A stretch of 64,000 nucleotides of DNA, taken from Parcubacteria group bacterium Gr01-1014_13. GTDB lineage: Bacteria > Patescibacteriota > Patescibacteriia > Magasanikbacterales > GWA2-37-8. Location: positions 5,030 to 69,029 of the forward strand of contig VMGB01000001.1 of NCBI GenBank assembly GCA_007376295.1. The letters are read 5' to 3'. The notes below the pieces were generated by a model that searched no databases, had not been told where the DNA came from, and worked only from the letters and a program-made list of their open reading frames with translations. The stretch's first letter is position 1. Each line of letters starts with the position of its first letter. The translations under genes and the position numbers were made by a program. Of this stretch, positions 2,103 through 41,386 are shown piece by piece.

Positions 2103-4124
2103 ATGCTTCAATGGATGCAACGAAAATTTTTCTTAATTCTTAAAGCCGCTACAATAACGACTGTTGTTTTGTTAGCGGTTTTTTGTTTGCCTGATCTAGT
2201 TCGGGCGCAGAGTATTGTCGATCCAAGCAGTACTTTGCAAACTGGAGTCGCCGTTATTTCCCAGCCGTTAGGTTTGCCTGCTACCGATATCAGGCTGATT
2301 GTGGCCAATATAATACGAATAGCTTTGGGGCTTTTGGGAATTATCGCCGTGGCTTTATTGATTTATGCTGGCTATCTTTGGATGACAGCTGGAGGTAATG
2401 AGGAACAGATTGCTGATGCCAAGAAATTTTTAATTAACACTGCCATTGGTCTGGCTATTATTCTCAGCGCTTATGCAATCGTTAGTTTTGTTATTAGTAA
2501 ATTAACTGATGCCACTGGAGATGGGGGACAGTTCGGCGGCGGAAGTTTAGAAGCGCCGATTTCGGAAAATTTTCAAGGCAGTGGCGCTTTGGGTAAGATT
2601 ATAAAAGATCATTATCCAGCGCGTGATCAAGTAGCAGTACCGCGCAACACTAAAATTGTTGTAACTTTCCGTAAACCAATTAAAGCCGATAGTTTTATTG
2701 ACGACACTACTGGTGATGGAATTTTTGGAAATTGCAAAACTACTGTAGAAAATTGGTGGAATGACTGCGATCATGTAAAAAATATTAGTGATAATTTAAT
2801 TAATATAAAACGCGCAGATAATAACGAGAAAATTTTTGGCGCAGTCGCCTTAACATCACTTAGCACTGAAAATGGTGTGGCTGGTATTTATACAATTTTA
2901 ATTAAACCAATTACTGATGCTGGTAGTGCTAACGGGGGATATTTAGGCAGCGCCACCGAACCACTGGCGTATATTGTTCGTTTGGGTTCAGGCATGCTTT
3001 TGGATGACCCAGCTAACAGCAATCCTTCAGTATTTCAGGCTAGTATTTTAGGAAATAATTATTATGAATGGAAATTCACTAATAGTACCGCTTTAGATAC
3101 TGCCCCGCCTTCTGTGGAAAGTATTTTTCCAGACGCTGATACTACCGAAGATAAAAATAGTGTTTTGCAGATTCATTTTAGCGAACCTTTAGACCCAATT
3201 GGTATTCAAGGTAAATTTAATGCTGCCGCCGGACATTTTGTGCTTGATGGTGGAAATATTTTCTTAAAATCCGACAACAGTACTTTGCCTCAAGGTAATT
3301 TTAGTCTGACCAATGGTTACAGAACTTTGGAATTTACACCTTCTCAGGAATGCGGCAAAAATGCCTGTGGCAACAAAATTTATTGTTTGTCAGTCTGTGA
3401 TAAACCGGGCGCCAACTGCAGTCAGGATAATTATGAAGTCCTGCTTCGCGCGGCCAGAACAATTAATGCCAGCTCATTTGAATCTCTGCCGCTTTCAGGC
3501 ATTGCCGATTTGGCTGGCAATGCTTTGGATGGAAATAAAAATAATACTCCTAACTCTGCCCCGATCAGTTTGCCAGTATTTCCTAATCAAAAACAACCGG
3601 ATAATTTTTTCTGGGGCTTTAAAATTTCCGACAAAATCGATTCTTCCACTCCTTTTATACAGACAATATTGCCAGGCAAGGACGGTGAAAATATAACTCG
3701 TAATCAGGAATTAAGCATGGTCTGGAGCAAACGAATGCGCGCTGATTCGATGTATAATATAGGTATAGAAGAAAAACCAGCTCATCAAGTTCCCATTTGG
3801 AAAGTACCTTTCACATTATTTAATCCTAATAATACGAGCTATACCCGGATAAATCATGGTCCGTTTTTGGATGCAATCCGCCAGTATTATTTCCCAGTAG
3901 TAAGTTCTAGTGTTGAAGATTTACATTTCAATTGTTTCTATCCTGGCAAAGGTCCGAGTCGTCCAGTTGGCGCAGGTACGGTAGTCTCTCCGGATTGTGA
4001 TGATGTTAATCCGCAGAATTGTTGCCAAGTGATAAGCGCGCTGAACAAATCTCTTTGTTGCAACGGCGCGGTAGGTACAGTTGCTTCAGCCTGTTTAGAT
4101 TATCTGCGGCAAAATAGTCTTTAA
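2103..4124 (+). CDS. Large secreted/membrane-anchored protein with an N-terminal TrbC/VirB2-like pilin module fused to Ig-like (SbsA/Big_5-like) domains and a Cys-rich C-terminus
   Basis: Signal peptide followed by the ATDIRLIVANIIRIALGLLGIIAVALLIYAGYLWMTAGGNEEQIADAKKFLINTAIGLAIILSAYAIVSFVISKL two-helix pilin-like module, then a Gly-rich linker. The C-terminus is CC-rich (NCCQVISALNKSLCCNG). Confidence 0.8.
   Translation: MLQWMQRKFFLILKAATITTVVLLAVFCLPDLVRAQSIVDPSSTLQTGVAVISQPLGLPATDIRLIVANIIRIALGLLGIIAVALLIYAGYLWMTAGGNEEQIADAKKFLINTAIGLAIILSAYAIVSFVISKLTDATGDGGQFGGGSLEAPISENFQGSGALGKIIKDHYPARDQVAVPRNTKIVVTFRKPIKADSFIDDTTGDGIFGNCKTTVENWWNDCDHVKNISDNLINIKRADNNEKIFGAVALTSLSTENGVAGIYTILIKPITDAGSANGGYLGSATEPLAYIVRLGSGMLLDDPANSNPSVFQASILGNNYYEWKFTNSTALDTAPPSVESIFPDADTTEDKNSVLQIHFSEPLDPIGIQGKFNAAAGHFVLDGGNIFLKSDNSTLPQGNFSLTNGYRTLEFTPSQECGKNACGNKIYCLSVCDKPGANCSQDNYEVLLRAARTINASSFESLPLSGIADLAGNALDGNKNNTPNSAPISLPVFPNQKQPDNFFWGFKISDKIDSSTPFIQTILPGKDGENITRNQELSMVWSKRMRADSMYNIGIEEKPAHQVPIWKVPFTLFNPNNTSYTRINHGPFLDAIRQYYFPVVSSSVEDLHFNCFYPGKGPSRPVGAGTVVSPDCDDVNPQNCCQVISALNKSLCCNGAVGTVASACLDYLRQNSL
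2260..2530 (+). repeat. Copy 1 of the duplicated pilin-module coding segment (about 270 bp)
   Basis: About 75% nt and about 80% aa identity to 4265..4535, from GLPATDIRL to SKLTDAT. Confidence 0.8.
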
Positions 4125-4135
4125 CCCCAACCAAC

Positions 4136-7100
4136 ATGACCCAAAGGAGAGGAAAAATTTTAATCACACTTTTATTCGCGGTTTTGGCTACTGCTGCTTG
4201 TTTGTGGTTTGCGCCCGCAGTTCATGCTCAAACAACTAACGCTCCAGATTTGGGTTTGGCGCCAGTAGGCAGTTCTATCGGTCTGCCATCTACTGATATC
4301 CGTTTGGTAGTAGCCAATATTATTCGTGTTGCTTTGGGACTGCTGGGTATAGTCGCTTTAGTTTTAATAATTTATGCTGGCTTTGTTTGGATGACTGCCG
4401 GTGGTGAAGAAGAAAAAATTTCTCAAGCCAAGAAAATTATGGTCAATGCCGCTATTGGCTTGGCAATAATTTTATCATCATACGCTATTGCCAGTTTTGT
4501 AATTAGTAAATTAACTGACGCTACCACCGACAATGGCGGAATTGGCGGTCCTGGCGGCGGGGGAGACAACCCATATTTCCCAGGCGGAATTTTTTATGTT
4601 GATAGTTTGCCGTCCGGAGGACAGTTGTGTATTAGAAATGTTCACTTAGCGCTCACTTTTAATTTGAAAGCAGATATTTCCACCTTAAACGATAATGTGG
4701 TGGTACAAAAAGCCGACGGCACAGTTCAGCCTGGACAATGGGAATCGTTAAGTAATACAACAGTTGCTTTTGTGCCCAACGGAGATTGCGGAAGTGGCAC
4801 GCCGGATTGTTATGCTGCCAACACAGCTTACACTTTGCATTTCAAAAATGGCAGTGCAGTAAAATCTGCTAATGGTCAATTAGGTTTAAACTGTGCAATT
4901 AAAGCCGGTTGTGGTGATGTTCAGTTTACAACTGGTGATGGTGTGGATCGCAATCCGCCGCAAGTGAAAATAGAACCGATTGCCAGTGATCTGTTGCGGG
5001 TTGGAAATGTTGTGCCAGTAGAAGTTAGTTATACCGATGATAATGGCGTACAAAAAATAGATTTAACTGCTGATAACTTCTTTGTTAGTAGTCAGTCTGT
5101 TCCAGGTTGTCAAAAGTCAGGTTCGGTCACTCTCAATTGGCCTACAGTTGGAATTTCAGGCGGGGTACATGCTTTGGGAGCAACTGGCTTTGATTGGTCT
5201 GCGCTTAGCGATAGTACCAGTACAAATGTAAATCTGTTACCTCAACATTGTTTTGATAATACTTTGCAGGCGGATTTAGGAGAAGTCAAAGTTGGTCCTC
5301 CAGCTTGTGGTGGCGAATGTGGTGCTTGCGCTGGTTCTCCATGTACTACTAATACGCAGTGTGCCAGTGGTTTTTGTGATCAGGTGGCTGGTGTATGTGT
5401 GGACAAGATGCGTATCAATGGTGTCTCTCCATTATCCGGCGGTCCGGGAACTTTTGTTTCTATTAGTGGTGATTATTTTGGCAATACACCTGGTAAAGTT
5501 TTTATTGGTGCAACTCCAGCTCCGCTGGCAGCTTGTGCTATTGGCGCCTGGAAACCTTGGCAAATAATAATTCAGGTACCGCCCGGCGCAGTTAGCGGAC
5601 CAATATCAGTGGAAACAGCTCCGGACTCAGGAGGAAAAAATTTCACCGACGCTACCAATGATAGCTTTGGGCCAAGAATTAGTGATTTTACAGTAAATAA
5701 TTTAGTGCGTCCTGGTTTGTGCGGAATAAATCCAGTGGGTGATTTGCCTGGCGCAGAAGTGTCTCTATTAGGTCAGCGTTTTAGTAATGCTCCAGGGCAA
5801 GTATTTTTTGGCCAACAAAGTGTTTTGATAAGTTTGAGCAACTGGACAGACACTTTGATTAAAGCCAGAGTTCCTTTGCTTGATGTCGGCCCAGTAGCAG
5901 TAAAAGTTTCCAAAAATAATTTAGATAGCAATAGTGTTAAATTTTTTGTTGAGCAGGGATTAAGCGGTACAGCCCCATTTATTTCCAGCATCACTCCAGA
6001 TCGTGGCGGGAAAGGGGAATATATAACTATTACGGGAAATAATTTTGGTGATCAAACAGGAAGAATTTGGTTTAAAGAAAATATTAATGGCCAGCCTGGT
6101 GATGCGATAGATGGTAGTTTTACTTTCCCAGCCGGATGCCAAAACACTTGGACCGATAAACAGATTATTGTAAAGTTTCCAGCCAATAACGGCAGTGTGG
6201 GTAAATCTTATTTTGTACAGGTTCGTCCAGCTGATTCTAGTTTGGGCACCAGTCCGCTAGGTCCAATTTTTAATCTAGAAGCTGGTCTGCCTTCGCCGGG
6301 TATTTGTAATATCAATCCGGTTTCTAGCCCCGTACCTTTTGCCAGCGCAGCTCCGGATATGAAAATTATCGGAGAAAATTTTGGTGCAGCGCCATTAGTT
6401 TATTTCTGGGGACCAGCGGCGTCTTCTACTTCCATCACTGGTAGAATTCTCGGCAGTTCAAGCACTGTGACAAATATGCTTGTGGGCCAAACTATCTCTA
6501 CCCGTCCATTAGCCGGCACAATCAGCGGTCCGGTAGTAGTACAGAGAAAACCGGATAATAAATTAAGTAATCCGCAAAATTTTTCCGTAGTAGATTGTGT
6601 TAAAAATAATAATACTTGCACAGCTGTAAATACACATTGTTGTATGGCAGGAACAGAATCGGGCATGTGTAAGCCGGATACAGAGTTATGCGAAGGCGAA
6701 ACTTTGTCGACCGGATTCATTTGGCGTTTCAGCACAAAGGATATTCCAAAAATTCCCCAAGTAGTAGAAAGATGTGATAATAATACTGATTTGGGTTTGA
6801 ATATTCCTTCACCTTCACCTAGTACTTTGTGGGACACTTCCACCAGCGGTGTTCACCACAGTGTTTGTCGTACCGCTTCAGTCATGGTGGAGTTTAGTTT
6901 GCCAACGATGAATAATATTTCTCGTACTAATTTAGTAGTCAATGAATGTAATCCTAGCACTGTAAACGAAATTAACCGCACTTGTACTGCGGTGGGTCAA
7001 GTAAATCTTAAGGGTACAGGTGATTTTGTGCCCCAGCTGAGCACGGAAAGGACTGATTATTTACAATTAAATCCAGACGCTAGTTACAACAACGGAAAAT

Positions 7101-10100
7101 GGAAAGACAATACCTGGTATCAAGTTGTGCTCCGAAGCGGTATTACTGCTGGTGTCGGTACAAGCAGCGCTCCTTTGGCCAAGGATAAACCGTGCGGCGG
7201 AGACTCATCTTACTGTTTTGTTTTTAGGTCTGATTCCCAAGATTGTAAAATGAAACAAGTGGTAATTACTCCATACAGTTATTTTACTACTGTTTTAGAA
7301 GCGCCAATGAAACACAGGACTAATCCGGCAGATGATGGTGAAGACGTTGTTTATTCTGGACACGGATTAAGCACCCAGCATTGTATAATTATGGACACCA
7401 GCATGTTTACCTGGACTTGGGGCAGTAAAAACGCCTATTATGCCGATATTTTTTCTGCAAATAATTCTTCGGCCAAAGTTTCGGCCTTGGCCAACACTGT
7501 AGGTGTAGGTTTAACTAATCCGGAAAATGCTGTGAATGTAAACGCCACCGCCACATTGGCTTCGGCTAGTTTTGGTGGACGCAGTCCGCTCACCATAGAT
7601 TTAAGTAATCCCGAAGTGGTAGATTTCTGGCCAACTTGTTTGCAGTCTTGTACCAACGCTGAAGTGGGTGTGCGTTTTAGCACCACCATGTCGAATAAAA
7701 ATTTGCCGAGCGGTCCGATAAAATTATTAAAATGTGCTGATGAAAATTGTTTCAAGACTACTCCGGTTTTAGCAGATACAGATGTGTTTTTAGACAGCGC
7801 TACCGGATACAGAATTTTAAAACTTGCCAATTCCGGTCTTGGTTCATTAGAGCTGGAGCCAGATACTATTTATAAAGTTGTAATTTCTTCATCCACCAGC
7901 AATGTAAATTCGCCGGAGTTATTATGGTCTGCGGCCAGATTAGGTGATCCGACTACATTTTCGAAGCCATACAAAAAAGAGTTTACCTGGCGTTTTAAAA
8001 CTAAAAAAGAAAAATGTAAAATTCACCGCGTGGAGGTAGCACCGAAAAATTTCTTTGCTGAATTTGTAATTGATAGAGAACTATACAGCGCCCAACCATT
8101 TTCGTCTCCGGACACTTGTAGTGCAGCCGGACAAAAATTAAATCCTTGGATGGTAGGTTGGAACTGGACATCTTCCGCGCCTGCAGTGGCAAAGGTAACT
8201 ACTTTTAGCACCAAAGGAAGCAATCCTTACTGCACTTTGGGTTGTGTGCGTAAAGGTAGTAGTATTCCGGTCGGAGTGACAGGAATTCCAGTTTGCGGCA
8301 ATGGACAACTAGAAGCCGGGGAGGATTGTGATCCGCCGGGCAAAGGAGCTGGTTGTGGTTTAGATTGTCGAAGATTGGGAAATATTAGTACATCTACTTG
8401 TGGAAATGGAATTGTTGAGCCAAATCGCGGCGAAACATGTGACACCGGATCAGCTACTACTTCCATTGGTTGTGGCAGCAACTGTCTACGTCTTGGTTCT
8501 TCAGCGGCTACGGGCGCAACAGTTACGGGTGCCTCTATTTGCGGCAATGGTTCTATTGGTAGTGGTGAAGATTGTGATTTAGGAATTACAGCATCTTCAA
8601 CAGTGGCTATTTCAGCTATGCGTTGTTCAGACAACTGTTTACATTTAGGTACAAGATTATCTAATAACTGGTGTTTTACTAATAGTGTTGGTTTTGGCGG
8701 ATTTGCCCAAACAGAATTTCTATCTGCATGCCGGCTGGCTTTAAGCCGTTGCGGTGATGGGGTAAATAATCCAGATGAAGACACTGGATGTGATTTAGGT
8801 AATGGTAAGAAAGCTGCAAAGTGTAATGATTTTTGTTTGATTAATACTAGCAGCACTTCTCCTCTTGAATGCGTTGCCAACACCGAAGGCTGTGATCAAA
8901 ATGGTCAACATATAGGTTCTTCCTTGCTTTATAGCACACCATCGTTGTGTGGGAATGGACTGGCAGAAATTGGTGAGGATGCTTTTTGTGAAACTAATAT
9001 TATTACGATCCATACCGGATTTAACCCTTGGACTTTAGCTACTGGTATAGGCTTAGGTGTGGCTATTGGAGTTCCAGCAACTCAGCAAACGGATATAAAT
9101 GGTAGTACCAGCGAGCAAACTGCAGGTGGCGGCCCAGTAGGCAACAAAGGTAAATTTATTATTCCATGCGGATACAAAACTGATGCTGAATGTGAAGTGC
9201 GTCTGGGTAAGGGTTGGGGCGTGGCTTCGGACGGCTGTTGTTATGTGCGTCCGAAATTATCAAGTGTTTATCCGGGAAGTACTACCACAGTCCAAGCAAA
9301 TGTTTGCCCAAATACAGCTATCGAAGCTACTTTTGATGATGAGATAGATGTTTCGAGTTTAAAAAATAATATAGTATTGGCCCGCGGTGCCGGCGCCACA
9401 GCTACTTGTAGCGGCACCGAAGATGTTTCTAATTTAGTATTAAATAATCAACCAGTTGATGGAAGTAATTTGCCTTGGTACAAAAAGATTTTTGTAGTCG
9501 TAGTTAATTTCTTCAGAAATTTAGCGGGTCAAGATGTATCTGCGACCCATACCACTATCCAATCAACCAAGTGGTGCGCCGGAGAAGATCTTGGTCAAGG
9601 CGATGTGGTTGTAACCACCGGGACAGAAAGTAAAATTATTTTCAAATTAGATCAGCCGCTAGCTTTTGATACGGATTATTTTATTGCGTTAAAAGAAGGT
9701 TTACGTAGCAAGCGGGGGATAAGCATTGGGAAAAATAATACTACAAATAAACCATTAAGTTGGAAGTTTATTACCGGATCAAAAATTTGTGAGATTGATA
9801 GTGTGGCTGTAGATCCGTCACAAGTTTATTTAAACAAAGCGGGCGTCACCACCACTCTATTTGCCGATGCTTACAATGCTAGTGCGGCAAAGATTCAGGC
9901 TATACCGAGATTTTATGCCTGGCAATATTTATGGCAACCAGTCGGAAATCTTCTTGTAAATCTACAAGAGACAACCTCTTCCCGAAATATAATTTCGGCG
10001 CAAAATCGTAACGGTGAAATTGACTTGCGCGCTTCAGCGGTAATTACTGACAATATTTATTCTAACCAATTTGGCGCTGTGGCCACCGGCAAGTCCCACG

Positions 10101-22740: not shown

Positions 22741-22828
22741 TTTCAGCTAAATTTTAATAATTTAAATCATCTCTTATCTTGACAGTCGCAACAAGTCCCA
22801 ATGCTTGGCATGGTGGTTACATTGGCGC

Positions 22829-22856
22829 TTGACAAAAGGCGTATTTGTGGTACAAT
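22829..22856 (+). promoter_or_regulatory. Sigma70-like promoter TTGACA-16-TACAAT upstream of the island gene
   Basis: ttgaca at 22829-22834 and tacaat at 22851-22856, followed by an AAGGAGG SD before the ATG at 22997. Confidence 0.5.
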
Positions 22857-22996
22857 ACGCCGCTCTTTTATTTCTCAGCTTTCTTTTGGCTCTGTTTACA
22901 GGTTCAAAAGAAGGCTGGGAAAACCAGCTAGAAGACAAGCCTTATGCTCTGCATGGTGTAGAGTGAGAGGTGAGTCATAAATCAAGGAGGTGCCAA

Positions 22997-23584
22997 ATGG
23001 CACGCACGAAGCAACAGAAGAGCGAGTTCGTTAGTGGTCTCGGCACAGGGTTCGAGTTCGTCAAGGCGATCTCAGATGAGGTCCGAAAATTGGGCGGTAG
23101 TGATGATGATCTTCGTAAGGTCATCACACAGACCGCTTTGCGTCGCAAGATTGCCGAGTCTATCATGGTGGGTCGAGATGGAAGCAAGTTTCCCTCTCTC
23201 GTCCATGCCGCAGAGCTCATCCCCGAGGGATGGACGGTCGTGGAGGATGTCGTTCTGTCGTCATTCGACGTGAGCGGTTTGAAGCCCCGTTCGTTCCTCA
23301 AAGAGCGTGAGACGTCAATCAGCAGCGAACAGATGCGTAAGCGCGCCGCGGAGTTCCACTGCAACCTCGGGCTCTCCGATGCTAAGCGCATGCTTGCCGA
23401 GCAGGATAAGATCCCTGTCGAGTTTCGGGATTTTTATATCCCATTTCCCGGCACGGTTTTGCGCGATCCGGGCGGCGACCTCAGCGTCCCTTACCTCTTC
23501 TTCTACGGCGGTCGTTGGCGCATGGACTTCGTCTGGCTCGGCAACGACTGGGACGTCAGCGATCGGTTCGCCTGTAGCGAGTAG
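22997..23584 (+). CDS. Hypothetical protein (195 aa), a member of a two-copy paralogous family in this window (paralog at 52405..52986)
   Basis: ATG at 22997 with a strong SD aaggaggtgccaaATG. Shares with the paralog: RKRAAEFHCNLGLSDAKRMLAE...IPVEFRDFY...VPYLFFYGGRWRMDFVWLGNDW versus RQRAIKLKANLGLADAQYILGH...IPNEFRKHY...VAFLYWHHSRWFLGFRPAGDSW. Confidence 0.6.
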   Translation: MARTKQQKSEFVSGLGTGFEFVKAISDEVRKLGGSDDDLRKVITQTALRRKIAESIMVGRDGSKFPSLVHAAELIPEGWTVVEDVVLSSFDVSGLKPRSFLKERETSISSEQMRKRAAEFHCNLGLSDAKRMLAEQDKIPVEFRDFYIPFPGTVLRDPGGDLSVPYLFFYGGRWRMDFVWLGNDWDVSDRFACSE

Positions 23585-23645
23585 GAAACTTGGTGACTCG
23601 GACACTTGGTACTAAACTGTTGTCTGTTCGGTCCTCGGTTTCTCG

Positions 23646-23705
23646 GACCCTCGGTCAGCGTTCACTGTAAAATGTGAATGTTTGGTCGAGGGTCTTTTTC
23701 TTTTC
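23646..23705 (+). terminator. Structured rho-independent terminator after the island gene
   Basis: Stem gaccctcg/cgagggtc around a loop containing the inner hairpin ttcac..gtgaa, then TTTTTCTTTT. Confidence 0.6.
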
Positions 23706-23762
23706 CAAAAAATTTGTTAAACGGTGATAGGTGGGTACTGGTGGTGGGGTAGAGTTTTTATT

Positions 23763-25088: not shown

Positions 25089-26771
25089 CTATCTTTTTAG
25101 ATTTTTTACCATATAAGTATTTTCTAGAGTAAAGCCGAATTTTTTATAGTATTCACGCACGCCAACACCAGAAATTACCGCCAACTGGTAGGCTTTATTT
25201 TTTTTACAAATTTTTTCCGCTTCGGCGATTAATTTTTTACCCAAGCCAATATGCTGGCTGGCACCTTTGGATTTTTTACCAATGTTAATTAATTGGCCGT
25301 AGGTATGCAGTTCGCGAATAAAAGCTGGATAGCCCATCGCATCTAAAGCGGCCGCGCTAATTCCTTCACTAGGTAGGCCTTTTATAATTTTATCCTTAAC
25401 CACTTTGTCTTTTGATAAAACGCGCAAACGGCAAAAAGCATAAACCACATCGCGATTAGCGTCTTCAAAGCTCAAAAAGTATTCCTTGCCTCCGCTGGCT
25501 TCATATTCATCAATAAATAACTTTGGTTTGTGAGTAACCCCATTTTCAAAATGTTGGTGTCCTACTTCTCGGCAACGCAAGCATTTGCATTTTAATCCTT
25601 CCTTTGCCATTTCTGCTTGGATAACTTGTCTCAAGTTTGTCATGGTATTACCAGCTTGAATATGATGTCCGGGAATATCACGGATCAAGCGTGAGATACG
25701 TACGTATCCGGGCACCTTTGCTTTAAATTTTTTCAGCATGTTTATCAGTTCTCGGTCTGAATAAGTTTTGTATTCACCTCGTTTTAGCCAATCAAAAAGC
25801 TCGGAAGTTTTGATAACTGTGCAAGGATAAACTTTGATCATGTCCGGTCGGTAGTCAGAATTATCAAAAACTTCTAACATCATTTTTAAGTCCGTAGCTG
25901 GAGTGGCTCCGGGCAGTTGTGGCATGAGGTGGTAATCTACTTTGAAGCCATAATCCTTTAGCATTTTGGTGGCGTGTTTTACGGCCGCTATGCCATGACC
26001 GCGTTTGGTTATATCAAGGATTTTTTCATTAGTATTTTGCACACCAAGCTCTATTCGCGTTGTGCCCATTTCGCGCATAGCCGCGACAGTGCCTTTGTTT
26101 ATAAAATCAGGCCGTGTTTCTATAGTTAGACCGATGATGCGATGTTTACTTTTCTCATTTATTTTTTGAATTTTAAAACTAAGTTTACGTAAATCATCCA
26201 AAGAGAACATTTCATCTACTTGGCTATTTTCAAATTTGGCATCATTGCAAGCCTCAAAACATCTGGCAATAAACCAGTACTGGTATTTGATAGGGTAGGA
26301 GTTCCAGGTGCCGCCTTTTATAATCAATTCTACCTTGTCTGTGGGGTGGCCATTGGTAGTCAAAGCCTGGATACGTTGGGATACTTGTTGGTAGGGGTCA
26401 AAAGCCAAGCCTAAGGCGCGGGCTGCGGCTGGCTCGTCGGCTAGGTAGCTTTTTGGCATGCGGGCTTCGGTAGGGCAATAAATGCATTTTCCGGGGCAGG
26501 GGAATGGCTTGGTGAGTACGGTAATAATGCTAACACCAGACAAACTGCGCACAGCTCGGCGCATGAGCATTTTCTCTAAAGCTGGGCTTTTTTTAATCTT
26601 GTGTTGCTTGAGTAATTTATGATATGATTTAAGTAGTTCTGGCTTGGTAGGAATGTTAATTTGCGCATTTTTAGTCTGACGTAAAATTGTTCGCAGAACT
26701 TCGCCAAAATCAGCCGCCTTTGTGGGCGGATTAGAAGCCAGAGACTTAATCATTATTTCGGTAATAGACAT
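25089..26771 (-). CDS. Elp3-like radical SAM enzyme with a C-terminal GNAT acetyltransferase domain (tRNA-modification-type). The start is taken at internal Met47 of listed ORF 25089..26909.
   Basis: CPGKCIYCP radical-SAM cysteine triad, the Elp3 core GTTRIELGVQN and a C-terminal GNAT fold. Starting at 26771 avoids a 135-bp overlap with the divergent gene at 26775. The start position is uncertain. Confidence 0.8.
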   Translation of the reverse strand: MSITEIMIKSLASNPPTKAADFGEVLRTILRQTKNAQINIPTKPELLKSYHKLLKQHKIKKSPALEKMLMRRAVRSLSGVSIITVLTKPFPCPGKCIYCPTEARMPKSYLADEPAAARALGLAFDPYQQVSQRIQALTTNGHPTDKVELIIKGGTWNSYPIKYQYWFIARCFEACNDAKFENSQVDEMFSLDDLRKLSFKIQKINEKSKHRIIGLTIETRPDFINKGTVAAMREMGTTRIELGVQNTNEKILDITKRGHGIAAVKHATKMLKDYGFKVDYHLMPQLPGATPATDLKMMLEVFDNSDYRPDMIKVYPCTVIKTSELFDWLKRGEYKTYSDRELINMLKKFKAKVPGYVRISRLIRDIPGHHIQAGNTMTNLRQVIQAEMAKEGLKCKCLRCREVGHQHFENGVTHKPKLFIDEYEASGGKEYFLSFEDANRDVVYAFCRLRVLSKDKVVKDKIIKGLPSEGISAAALDAMGYPAFIRELHTYGQLINIGKKSKGASQHIGLGKKLIAEAEKICKKNKAYQLAVISGVGVREYYKKFGFTLENTYMVKNLKR

Positions 26772-26774
26772 AAT

Positions 26775-27485
26775 ATGGCAGGAAAAGATACAGCTACGAT
26801 TATACATAAAACCCGGAAAGATTACAACCGTATAGCTAAGTATTTTGATAGCACCAGAAATAACGCCGGTGAACTGGAAATTTTTAAGAAATTTATTAAA
26901 AATGGGCAAAATATTTTGGATTGGGGCTGTGGTAATGGAAGATTGATTTTTTTGTTACAGAATAAAAAAGTAAATTATTTTGGGACAGATCAGAGTGAAG
27001 GATTGTTAAAGATTGCTCGTAAAAATCATAAAAAAGCAGTAACAGAAGGTTGGGCAAAGTTTTTTTCTACAGCCAGCCGAAAGAAAATCTTCCCCAAAGG
27101 TTTTTTCGATCTAGTTTTCATGATTGCTTCGTTTCACCATTTGCCAGATAAACAGAGTCGATCGAAAATATTAGAGGATGTTTATAAACAATTAAAACCA
27201 GGCGGAAAATTAATTATTACGGTTTGGAATTTGGAGAGTGATTGGGCGAAAGATAAAATAGATACAAAATGGCAACAGATTGGAGAAAATGATTTTTTGG
27301 TTCCATGGAGTAATCCGCAGGGTGAAGTATTAGCCAATAGATATTACCATCATTTTCCGAAGGATGAATTAGCCGGACTTTTAAAAGAAACGGGATTCAG
27401 GATAAAAAAAATGGATTATGCTGAAAAAACAAATTGGACAGATAAAAAGGGTGGGAGAAATTTGGTAGTTATTGCTAGCAAATAG
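26775..27485 (+). CDS. Class I SAM-dependent methyltransferase (type 11-like)
   Basis: ILDWGCGNGR motif I and PGGKLIITVWN. Confidence 0.8.
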   Translation: MAGKDTATIIHKTRKDYNRIAKYFDSTRNNAGELEIFKKFIKNGQNILDWGCGNGRLIFLLQNKKVNYFGTDQSEGLLKIARKNHKKAVTEGWAKFFSTASRKKIFPKGFFDLVFMIASFHHLPDKQSRSKILEDVYKQLKPGGKLIITVWNLESDWAKDKIDTKWQQIGENDFLVPWSNPQGEVLANRYYHHFPKDELAGLLKETGFRIKKMDYAEKTNWTDKKGGRNLVVIASK

Positions 27486-40699: not shown

Positions 40700-41386
40700 A
40701 TGGATTCCAAACCAATTCGTGTTCCAGCAACAGTCAGAAAGGCGCAGGCGCGATATGCCAAGCTAGAGGCGCTTTATCCGCGCGATTTTGTGCGTGAGAT
40801 GGTAAAGGCGTACACGGACGCCCTTCCTCCGCCCGACGACGCTGTTTTTTTGCCAGACACAAGCCCCGAAGAGCTTGAAGCGGAGATGAAGGAAGACCCG
40901 GAAGATTTGGCGGCTGCGAGCCCCGATGAGCTAGCCGAGAACGAGAAGATGAAGCAGTTATTCCGTGATTTGCGTGGCAAGAAGTTGAGCGAACTGCCTG
41001 AGCCAACGCCAGAGGAAGATGCTGCTCACCTAGAGGAAGAGGTGGACACGGCCATTGCGAACGTGTTGAGTGCGTGGTTAAGCACCTTGCATATTGCCCA
41101 GAAACAGAGTGACCATCCGTTCGGAGTAGAGCTGAATCATACACTCGAGCCGGTTGTTCCAATCCGTTTTGGCGCTAACCCAGAGATGACATGGCAGGAA
41201 GCACCGTGTAATAGCATTTCGATGACTCCAGAACAAGTTGGGAAATTGCACGAAGCTTTTGCTGATAAGCTGCGTCTATTAATCGACGCCGCGCCACCAT
41301 GGGAAGGATATGTTGTGTCAGGTAAAGACCTGGTCATTTATAGATGGGGTAGTCAAAGCTATTGTCTTCGTAAGCCGGGCGTGTAG
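40700..41386 (+). CDS. Hypothetical acidic protein (228 aa) with a disordered Glu/Asp/Pro-rich middle
   Basis: ATG at 40700 after the AAGGAG SD. GC-rich. No family recognised. Confidence 0.5.
   Translation: MDSKPIRVPATVRKAQARYAKLEALYPRDFVREMVKAYTDALPPPDDAVFLPDTSPEELEAEMKEDPEDLAAASPDELAENEKMKQLFRDLRGKKLSELPEPTPEEDAAHLEEEVDTAIANVLSAWLSTLHIAQKQSDHPFGVELNHTLEPVVPIRFGANPEMTWQEAPCNSISMTPEQVGKLHEAFADKLRLLIDAAPPWEGYVVSGKDLVIYRWGSQSYCLRKPGV

Follow-up and report, generated by a model that had tools for sequence, protein, structure and literature searches.

A variable-protein gene between pyk and glyA

We analyzed 64,000 nt of the genome of Parcubacteria group bacterium Gr01-1014_13, which belongs to the Patescibacteria (candidate phyla radiation, CPR). 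This whole stretch, about 13% of a contig of 495,344 nt, is called the window throughout the paper. Between pyk and glyA it carries an island with a gene for a protein of 195 aa, and this gene is almost certainly a member of a variable-protein family of diversity-generating retroelements (DGRs). DGRs are bacterial systems which rewrite the tip of a binding protein via error-prone reverse transcription. Besides the target gene with its variable region (VR), they comprise a template repeat (TR), the protein Avd and a reverse transcriptase (RT). We favor as explanation that an insertion between pyk and glyA brought in the target-gene module of a Patescibacteria-type DGR, but not the half made up of TR, Avd and RT. 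What a preliminary description of this DNA had listed as an anonymous hypothetical protein of unknown function on a GC-rich island would now be a DGR variable-protein gene apart from its diversifying machinery. The gene and its VR homologue are located as follows.

22997-23584, + strand: gene of the DGR variable-protein homologue, 195 aa; 66% identity to P0002 over the full length, E = 3e-81
23459-23578, + strand: VR homologue, codons 155-194; positional homology to the VRs of L013, L021, L023 and L026

The product of the open reading frame (ORF) is identical to TSC84638.1. Its closest relative is P0002, the gene of which lies at locus L013 together with its own TR, Avd and RT. A word-indexed search yielded 37 relatives, and an exhaustive search 1,145 cluster representatives at E<=1e-3. 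The window protein is the only sequence of its 90%-identity cluster. Family members are mostly about 190 aa long with the C-terminal 135 residues as the conserved portion, and the near-invariant residues of the family were found kept in the window protein. In the last ~40 residues of the family alignment an invariant scaffold (W, L, F, R) alternates with residues encoded nearly exclusively by NNY codons, an alternation that is a DGR signature.

Using an adenine-tolerant diagonal scan, TRs were identified downstream of the closest relative and of three independent relatives.

L013 (closest relative, 66%): VR 1240-1359, TR 1727-1846; 97 of 120 positions identical, 23 mismatches
L021 (independent relative): VR and TR identical at 98 of 109 positions, 11 mismatches
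L023 (independent relative): VR and TR identical at 103 of 119 positions, 16 mismatches
L026 (independent relative): VR and TR identical at 113 of 124 positions, 11 mismatches

At all four loci every mismatch between TR and VR was found at a TR adenine. These adenines occupy codon positions 1 and 2 exclusively, mostly in AAC codons. The VR is formed by the last ~120 nt of the gene (~40 codons), stops 4-6 nt short of the end of the stop codon at each of the four loci, and is followed by the TR about 490 nt downstream. The order of the complete cassettes is target gene with VR, terminator, a conserved non-coding stretch of ~280 nt, TR, Avd (- strand) and RT (+ strand), with ~370 nt of non-coding DNA in total between target and TR. 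Avd adjoins the TR on the opposite strand (Pfam bAvd in L001), and the RT carries the motif LGNLTSQ. Avd and RT were found next to the relatives at L013, L021, L023, L026, L001, L036 and L037. A total of 8,000 relatives of the RT were obtained at E<=1e-40, and the named ones are Patescibacteria. Over 11 family VRs the column entropy was 1.38 bits at TR-adenine columns versus 0.60 at the others (p = 4e-11).

In each of the four complete cassettes a TATACT-like -10 box lies ahead of the conserved non-coding stretch (L013 ~1480-1726, L023 ~1110-1360, L021 ~2290-2550, L026 ~3260-3515), which had no match in Rfam. The stretch probably forms the 5' portion of this clade's DGR RNA. A conserved TAGTCTCTTCA was observed after all TRs.

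The heterologous TRs of the four loci match the window at 23457-23582 only, with 71-77% identity. There the window VR differs from them at 15-17 of 29-30 adenine sites versus 15-20 of 96-97 other sites. The excess of differences at TR adenines was clear for three of the four TRs (odds ratio 5.5-6.5, p = 4e-5 to 1.6e-4). The window VR codons at these sites are NNC or NNT. As the differences are concentrated at TR adenines and fall into NNC/NNT codons, the window VR bears the mark of adenine mutagenesis. Variants within clusters were not used as a sign that diversification continues: relative to P0002, P0413 has T-to-G changes at sites other than adenines, probably sequencing errors, and the few VR differences of P0417 and P0418 were not taken as evidence of diversification either.

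Detachment from the TR, Avd and RT

No DGR is present in cis within the 64 kb. In the window no TR was found by a repeat finder, an ungapped scan, the adenine-tolerant diagonal scan, blastn (word size 7) or nhmmer, the profile of which was built from the four regions of non-coding RNA plus TR; only the VR itself was matched. For RT and Avd, tblastn of the window with L013 and L001 queries gave nothing below E = 0.1. The ~280-nt non-coding region of the complete cassettes had no match anywhere in the window beyond 23722. Homology to the cassettes spans 22816, in the promoter region, to 23722 only and thus ends at the start of the TR transcription unit. The parts of the island that bear on its detachment are given below.

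22744-23753, no strand: island inserted relative to sister genomes; homology to the pyk-glyA junction of L032/L033 stops at 22743 and restarts at 23754
23585-23644, + strand: conserved post-VR element with CTYGG repeats, GAAACTTGGTGACTCGGACACTTGG versus the family consensus GAACCTTGGTCACTCGGACACTCGG
23676-23722, + strand: last stretch homologous to complete cassettes, 85% identity to L023 1091-1137

The last of these stretches comprises the tail of the terminator and the beginning of the TR transcription unit; the latter is TTTTGTTATACT-like and in the window mutated to TTTGTTAAAC.

The extent of the island, about 22744-23753, follows from the break and restart of host homology. Three sister genomes, with pyk 94, 92 and 88% identical to that of the window, share the neighborhood ftsA-ftsZ-nrdR-x-pyk / glyA-ELP3-like and are without the island. 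The gap from pyk to glyA is 44 nt in one of them and 4 nt in another, while the third has one inositol-phosphatase gene in between. A lineage-specific insertion between pyk and glyA is thus supported, and the acquisition that the preliminary description had suggested, proposing the comparison of sister genomes as a check, turned out to be right.

Two features of the window copy suggest detachment followed by drift. The first concerns the post-VR element, which is probably a target-recognition sequence plus hairpin. In the four TR-bearing cassettes the DNA hairpin has predicted energies of -10.5, -9.9, -7.8 and -4.3 kcal/mol, and in L001 of -7.2 kcal/mol. It is GC-rich with compensatory changes between complete loci, for example GGCGC/GCGTC versus GGCAC/GTGTC. 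At the corresponding site of the window (~23607-23622) it is degenerate: GGTACTAAACTGTT is found instead, with -1.7 kcal/mol, no better than shuffled sequence. The second feature is the GC content at third codon positions (GC3), which is 0.70 for the window copy, 0.80-0.91 for copies linked to a DGR and 0.59-0.85 for the other unlinked copies. Detached copies are lower in GC3 as a group (one-sided Mann-Whitney p = 0.016, n = 4 versus 5).

Downstream of the stop codon, pentamers of the type CTYGG are repeated with a period of about 8 nt (23585-23660: CTTGG, CTCGG, CTTGG, TTCGG, CTCGG, CTCGG, CTCGG) and are kept in the family. Such an array may be a protein-binding array marking the VR as recipient.

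Relatives provide further stages of decay. L001 keeps Avd and RT and is without the TR and the non-coding stretch. There the target is directly followed by Avd and RT, with 135 nt (L001 6568-6702) between the stop codons of target and Avd, and a 28-nt direct repeat (5740-5767 / 8236-8263, 93% identical) flanks target, Avd and RT. In L008 and L009 an IS1595 transposase is found at the expected site of the TR. These IS1595-family genes (L008 6569-7363, L009 4537-5331) lie immediately downstream of a truncated family member, and as the left flanks of the two loci differ, target and insertion sequence (IS) may have moved jointly. P0030 from a sister genome lacks both N-terminal domain and stop codon; Q, E and K, residues which NNY codons cannot encode, occur in its VR. 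This sister genome (GCA_964360135.1; L002, L032) is without the island at pyk-glyA, yet bears the degraded P0030 (L002 6001-6669) in a sugar-nucleotide/glycosyltransferase cluster. Closely related genomes therefore harbor detached copies repeatedly and at sites that differ. The series of complete, TR-lost, IS-disrupted, fully detached and C-terminally degraded copies could show how hypermutation targets are retired or domesticated.

According to the explanation which we favor, the VR in the window genome is probably no longer rewritten and the binding specificity would be frozen. The gene would be expressed from its own strong promoter, drifting slowly to host composition. The protein would be a soluble binding protein showing the VR-encoded residues as a ligand-binding surface. 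That the gene is currently not diversified appears to us somewhat the better supported state, and several observations weigh against it. ORF, promoter, Shine-Dalgarno sequence and terminator are intact, and the conserved post-VR sequence retains 22 of its 25 nt. GC3 of the VR is 0.83 versus 0.66 for the remaining ORF (Fisher p = 0.037), a difference compatible with a later rewriting of the VR from a TR. The argument from the hairpin is weak, because the active-looking L023 also folds poorly with its -4.3 kcal/mol, and the GC3 comparison rests on the 4 versus 5 loci. The search covered 64 kb of the 495-kb contig, and a DGR elsewhere in the genome could use the window VR.

This leads to the strongest alternative, a remote target still diversified in trans by a complete DGR elsewhere in the genome, which we regard as possible and clearly less probable than a detached, undiversified copy. 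The intact ORF and expression signals, the largely retained post-VR sequence and the high GC3 of the VR would all agree with it. DGRs are very common in CPR genomes, as indicated by the 8,000 RT matches (PMC8144416), and remote targets have been described from other lineages (PMC5758913). Where the downstream sequence of a family locus is long enough, an adjacent DGR is missing in about two thirds of cases, mostly with the ORF intact. Set against this are the absence of TR, RT and Avd within 23 kb upstream and 40 kb downstream, the degenerate hairpin and the GC3 below that of linked copies. The CPR DGRs surveyed by Wu et al. moreover tended to have a single adjacent target, with remote ones confined to another lineage (PMC5758913). 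As a weak point, the 495,344-nt contig is not represented among the best 120 of the 8,000 RT relatives.

Whether frozen or not, the gene places a family of more than 1,000 cluster representatives without a Pfam model among the DGR target families of Patescibacteria, and most sampled copies are not DGR-adjacent. Unlinked copies matter to DGR surveys which count RT-linked targets only, a limitation stated in PMC8144416.

Composition of the island and of DGR target genes

The GC-rich island reported in the preliminary description is real, while its figures needed correction. The GC content is 57.0% for the ORF (22997-23584), 51.0% for the 1,020 nt of 22741-23760 and 40.6% for the window. The 57% given for the whole ~1 kb thus holds for the ORF alone, as the untranslated regions (UTRs) of the gene have 43-44%, and the background is higher than the 38% assumed. 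In a sliding-window scan the 588-nt stretch richest in GC was 5.6 sd over the remainder of the 64 kb, and only 40.7-41.4 kb came near it with 53.7%.

A codon bias was found in the cassettes of relatives. Six family cassettes and one with an unrelated target (L036 3548-4177) have targets with GC3 of 0.80-0.95 and an adenine content at third positions (A3) of 0.01-0.08, also outside the VR. In these cassettes Avd and RT show host-like GC3 of 0.29-0.53, and the bias stops at the ends of the target ORF. The excess in GC3 was seen in family members across hosts of 36-50% GC, and no member was found above 50% GC. At four-fold sites A/(A+T) is 0.34 for targets and 0.43 for host genes; 0.06 of NNR codons end in A and 0.20 of NNY codons end in T. 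Such ratios may be ordinary for GC-rich bacteria, and no adenine-specific claim is made from them.

Ordinary codon bias of a native, very highly expressed gene is a most improbable explanation. Strong promoter, Shine-Dalgarno sequence and strongly structured mRNA ends would suit it. Ribosomal-protein, HU and RRF genes of related genomes indeed reach GC3 of 0.59-0.65 versus 0.41-0.43 for DnaE, NYN and IS transposase genes. The preliminary description had named such universally GC-rich highly expressed genes as a possible counter-argument to acquisition. The target genes still lie 0.2-0.3 above the ribosomal-protein genes in GC3, and their A3 is about ten-fold lower (0.01-0.08 versus 0.16-0.28). 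Expression bias as a sufficient cause was rejected on these values, and the gene, absent from the sister genomes, is not native.

The least credible reading is that a GC-rich donor supplied a generic cassette, horizontally acquired or selfish, with no relation to known systems. It would account for the absence from sister genomes, the atypical composition and the differing genomic contexts of family members, and is already contradicted by the direct linkage of relatives to TR, VR, Avd and RT, by flanks of 36-50% GC with no family member in a GC-rich genome, by the host-like Avd and RT, by the lack of integrase, transposase and terminal repeats at the window island, and by the lack of homologues of its protein on the viral contigs searched. 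Of the horizontally acquired, well-expressed cassette proposed beforehand, acquisition and expression signals were retained. A GC-rich donor as source of the bias was rejected, since the GC3 excess is limited to the target ORF in hosts of 36-50% GC.

With considerable doubt, the GC3-rich, A3-poor composition of targets may be a mechanistic hallmark of this DGR clade which decays after detachment. Possible causes are purging of scaffold adenines, with the RT occasionally copying beyond the TR, a DGR-linked conversion bias, and a constraint or stability requirement at the mRNA level. In the literature searched we found no paper linking DGR targets to codon composition. If true, composition alone would flag DGR targets including orphan or remote ones and date their detachment; if general, the bias would characterize these elements and offer a cheap means of detecting them.

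GC-rich target ORFs carry long spurious antisense ORFs, as seen in L036 and in the window (22975-23391 and 23315-23605, both - strand). The public gene call of L036 is on the wrong strand (3491-4123, - strand; true gene 3548-4177, + strand), so automated annotation can mis-strand such genes. Family members at L015 and L016 lie on contigs binned to metagenome-assembled genomes (MAGs) of uncultured Gammaproteobacteria, with flanks of 45-47% GC, reflecting either mis-binning or a wider host range.

Expression signals, predicted structure and known systems

The promoter-gene-terminator cassette with Shine-Dalgarno sequence of the preliminary description was found with all its parts: promoter 22829-22856, AAGGAGG at 22984-22990, the 195-aa ORF, and a terminator at 23645-23695 followed by a T-run.

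22829-22856, + strand: sigma-70-type promoter TTGACA-16-TACAAT with TG extension, 11 of 12 positions matched
22863-22996, + strand: structured 5' UTR with hairpin 1 (22871-22922), hairpin 2 (22934-22976) and Shine-Dalgarno sequence; minimum free energy -62.1 kcal/mol, z = -6.9
23645-23706, + strand: intrinsic terminator with nested hairpin (23645-23695) and T-run; homologous terminators in L023, L024 and L013

The promoter type TTGACAAAA...TTTTGTG.TA.AAT is common to the upstream regions of L012, L023, L024, L002 and L001, and 22816-22921 of the window matches L023 and L012 at 77-81%. A palindrome GGCGTAT/ATACGCC (22838-22861) overlaps the -10 hexamer. The Shine-Dalgarno sequence lies 6 nt ahead of the ATG at 22997, and its predicted pairing partner is CUCUUU at the leader 5' end (22863-22868/22984-22989). 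The 3' region folds with -49.9 kcal/mol (z = -6.1), and both UTRs fold far better than shuffled controls. Taken together, the sequence signals support a cassette designed for strong expression.

The arms of hairpin 1, AGCTTTCTTTT / AAAGAAGGCTGGGAA, are kept in L012, L020 (twice), L021, L023, L024 and L026. Compared to L026 the leader hairpin is 97.8% identical over 46 nt, though the proteins are just 46% identical. Across loci the arms are near-invariant while loop insertions vary. In the 5' arm CTC, CTT, CCT or CCC stands opposite a constant GGG, compatible with G-U pairs in RNA. The conserved leader 5' end (C/U)UCUUUU is able to pair with the Shine-Dalgarno sequence. The leader could be an mRNA stabilizer or a translational control element. 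No Rfam family matched the leader or post-VR RNA elements, either at the gathering score or at E<=1. In L020 (3328-3832) a second leader copy follows in tandem after the first target gene, presumably with a second gene.

The protein had no match in Pfam, PHROGs, PADLOC, NCBIfam and, using the family profile, PDB sequences. The earlier statement that it has no recognizable fold holds for these sequence libraries; it does not hold for structure prediction, where AlphaFold2 was confident (pLDDT 90.4 for the whole protein; 96.1 with pTM 0.89 for residues 60-195). The model shows an N-terminal bundle of three helices (residues ~10-57) and a C-terminal alpha/beta domain (residues ~60-195), and the VR encodes the last strands of that domain, a long beta-hairpin among them. 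The window protein lacks a signal peptide. As the relative P0011 carries one, the N-terminal module is variable across the family.

Foldseek versus PDB retrieved no solved DGR variable protein, and its best hits, 8oks, rhodocetin, BDCA2 and MCL, were not significant (TM 0.40-0.48, E >= 0.06). The only long alignments were to domains of the C-type-lectin fold (C-terminal domain of Bdellovibrio Bd2740, rhodocetin, BDCA2, MCL). CPR targets were suggested to carry unrecognized C-lectin variants (PMC8144416). The weak resemblance agrees with this suggestion without demonstrating membership, and the C-terminal domain of the model is possibly a divergent C-type-lectin-like fold.

The gene resembles those of Mtd of Bordetella phage BPP-1, TvpA of Treponema denticola, archaeal AvpA and Thermus TaqVP in having the VR in the last ~40 codons. 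Its relatives share with them the adenine-only TR mismatches, Avd, an RT with [I/L]GxxxSQ and, in complete cassettes, a GC-rich hairpin after the VR (for background on variable proteins with C-terminal VR see PMC5758913, PMC3240598, PMC5006420, PMC6328139). In contrast to the solved variable proteins it is without sequence similarity to them, the C-type-lectin resemblance being weak and non-significant. It also differs by its small size of 195 aa, the missing signal peptide, the three-helix N-terminal domain and the lack of TR, Avd and RT in the window. Host lineage, chromosomal cassettes and targets without recognizable domain or transmembrane segment are shared with the CPR clade of DGRs (“clade 2” of Roux et al. 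2021, “CPR set” of Wu et al. 2018; PMC8144416, PMC5758913), while the window copy is unlinked, unlike the RT-linked targets of those surveys. Like the remote targets of Legionella and Treponema it is a target-type gene with a VR away from any RT. Those have a matching TR in the genome, whereas none was found here in the 64 kb searched and several features point to decay. Most likely the island represents a known kind of system, as a new and detached DGR target gene of a CPR bacterium. New are the share of family copies unlinked to a DGR, the leader and post-VR elements outside Rfam, and the target-only codon bias.

Two minor observations were made in the window. The second GC-richest stretch (40700-41386, + strand; 53.7% over 588 nt) contains an ORF with a GC content of 0.51 and GC3 of 0.52 for a hypothetical protein of 228 aa (MDSKPIRVPATVRKAQ...) without Pfam match, which may be another foreign gene. 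The N-terminus MARTKQ of the variable protein (22997-23014) equals the start of the histone H3 tail, and a gene for an ELP3-like radical-SAM/acetyltransferase (25089-26909, - strand) lies 1.5 kb away. A connection was discarded as a probable coincidence, since the motif is confined to the closest relatives; the conserved N-terminal part among these is KSEF(V/L)SGLG.

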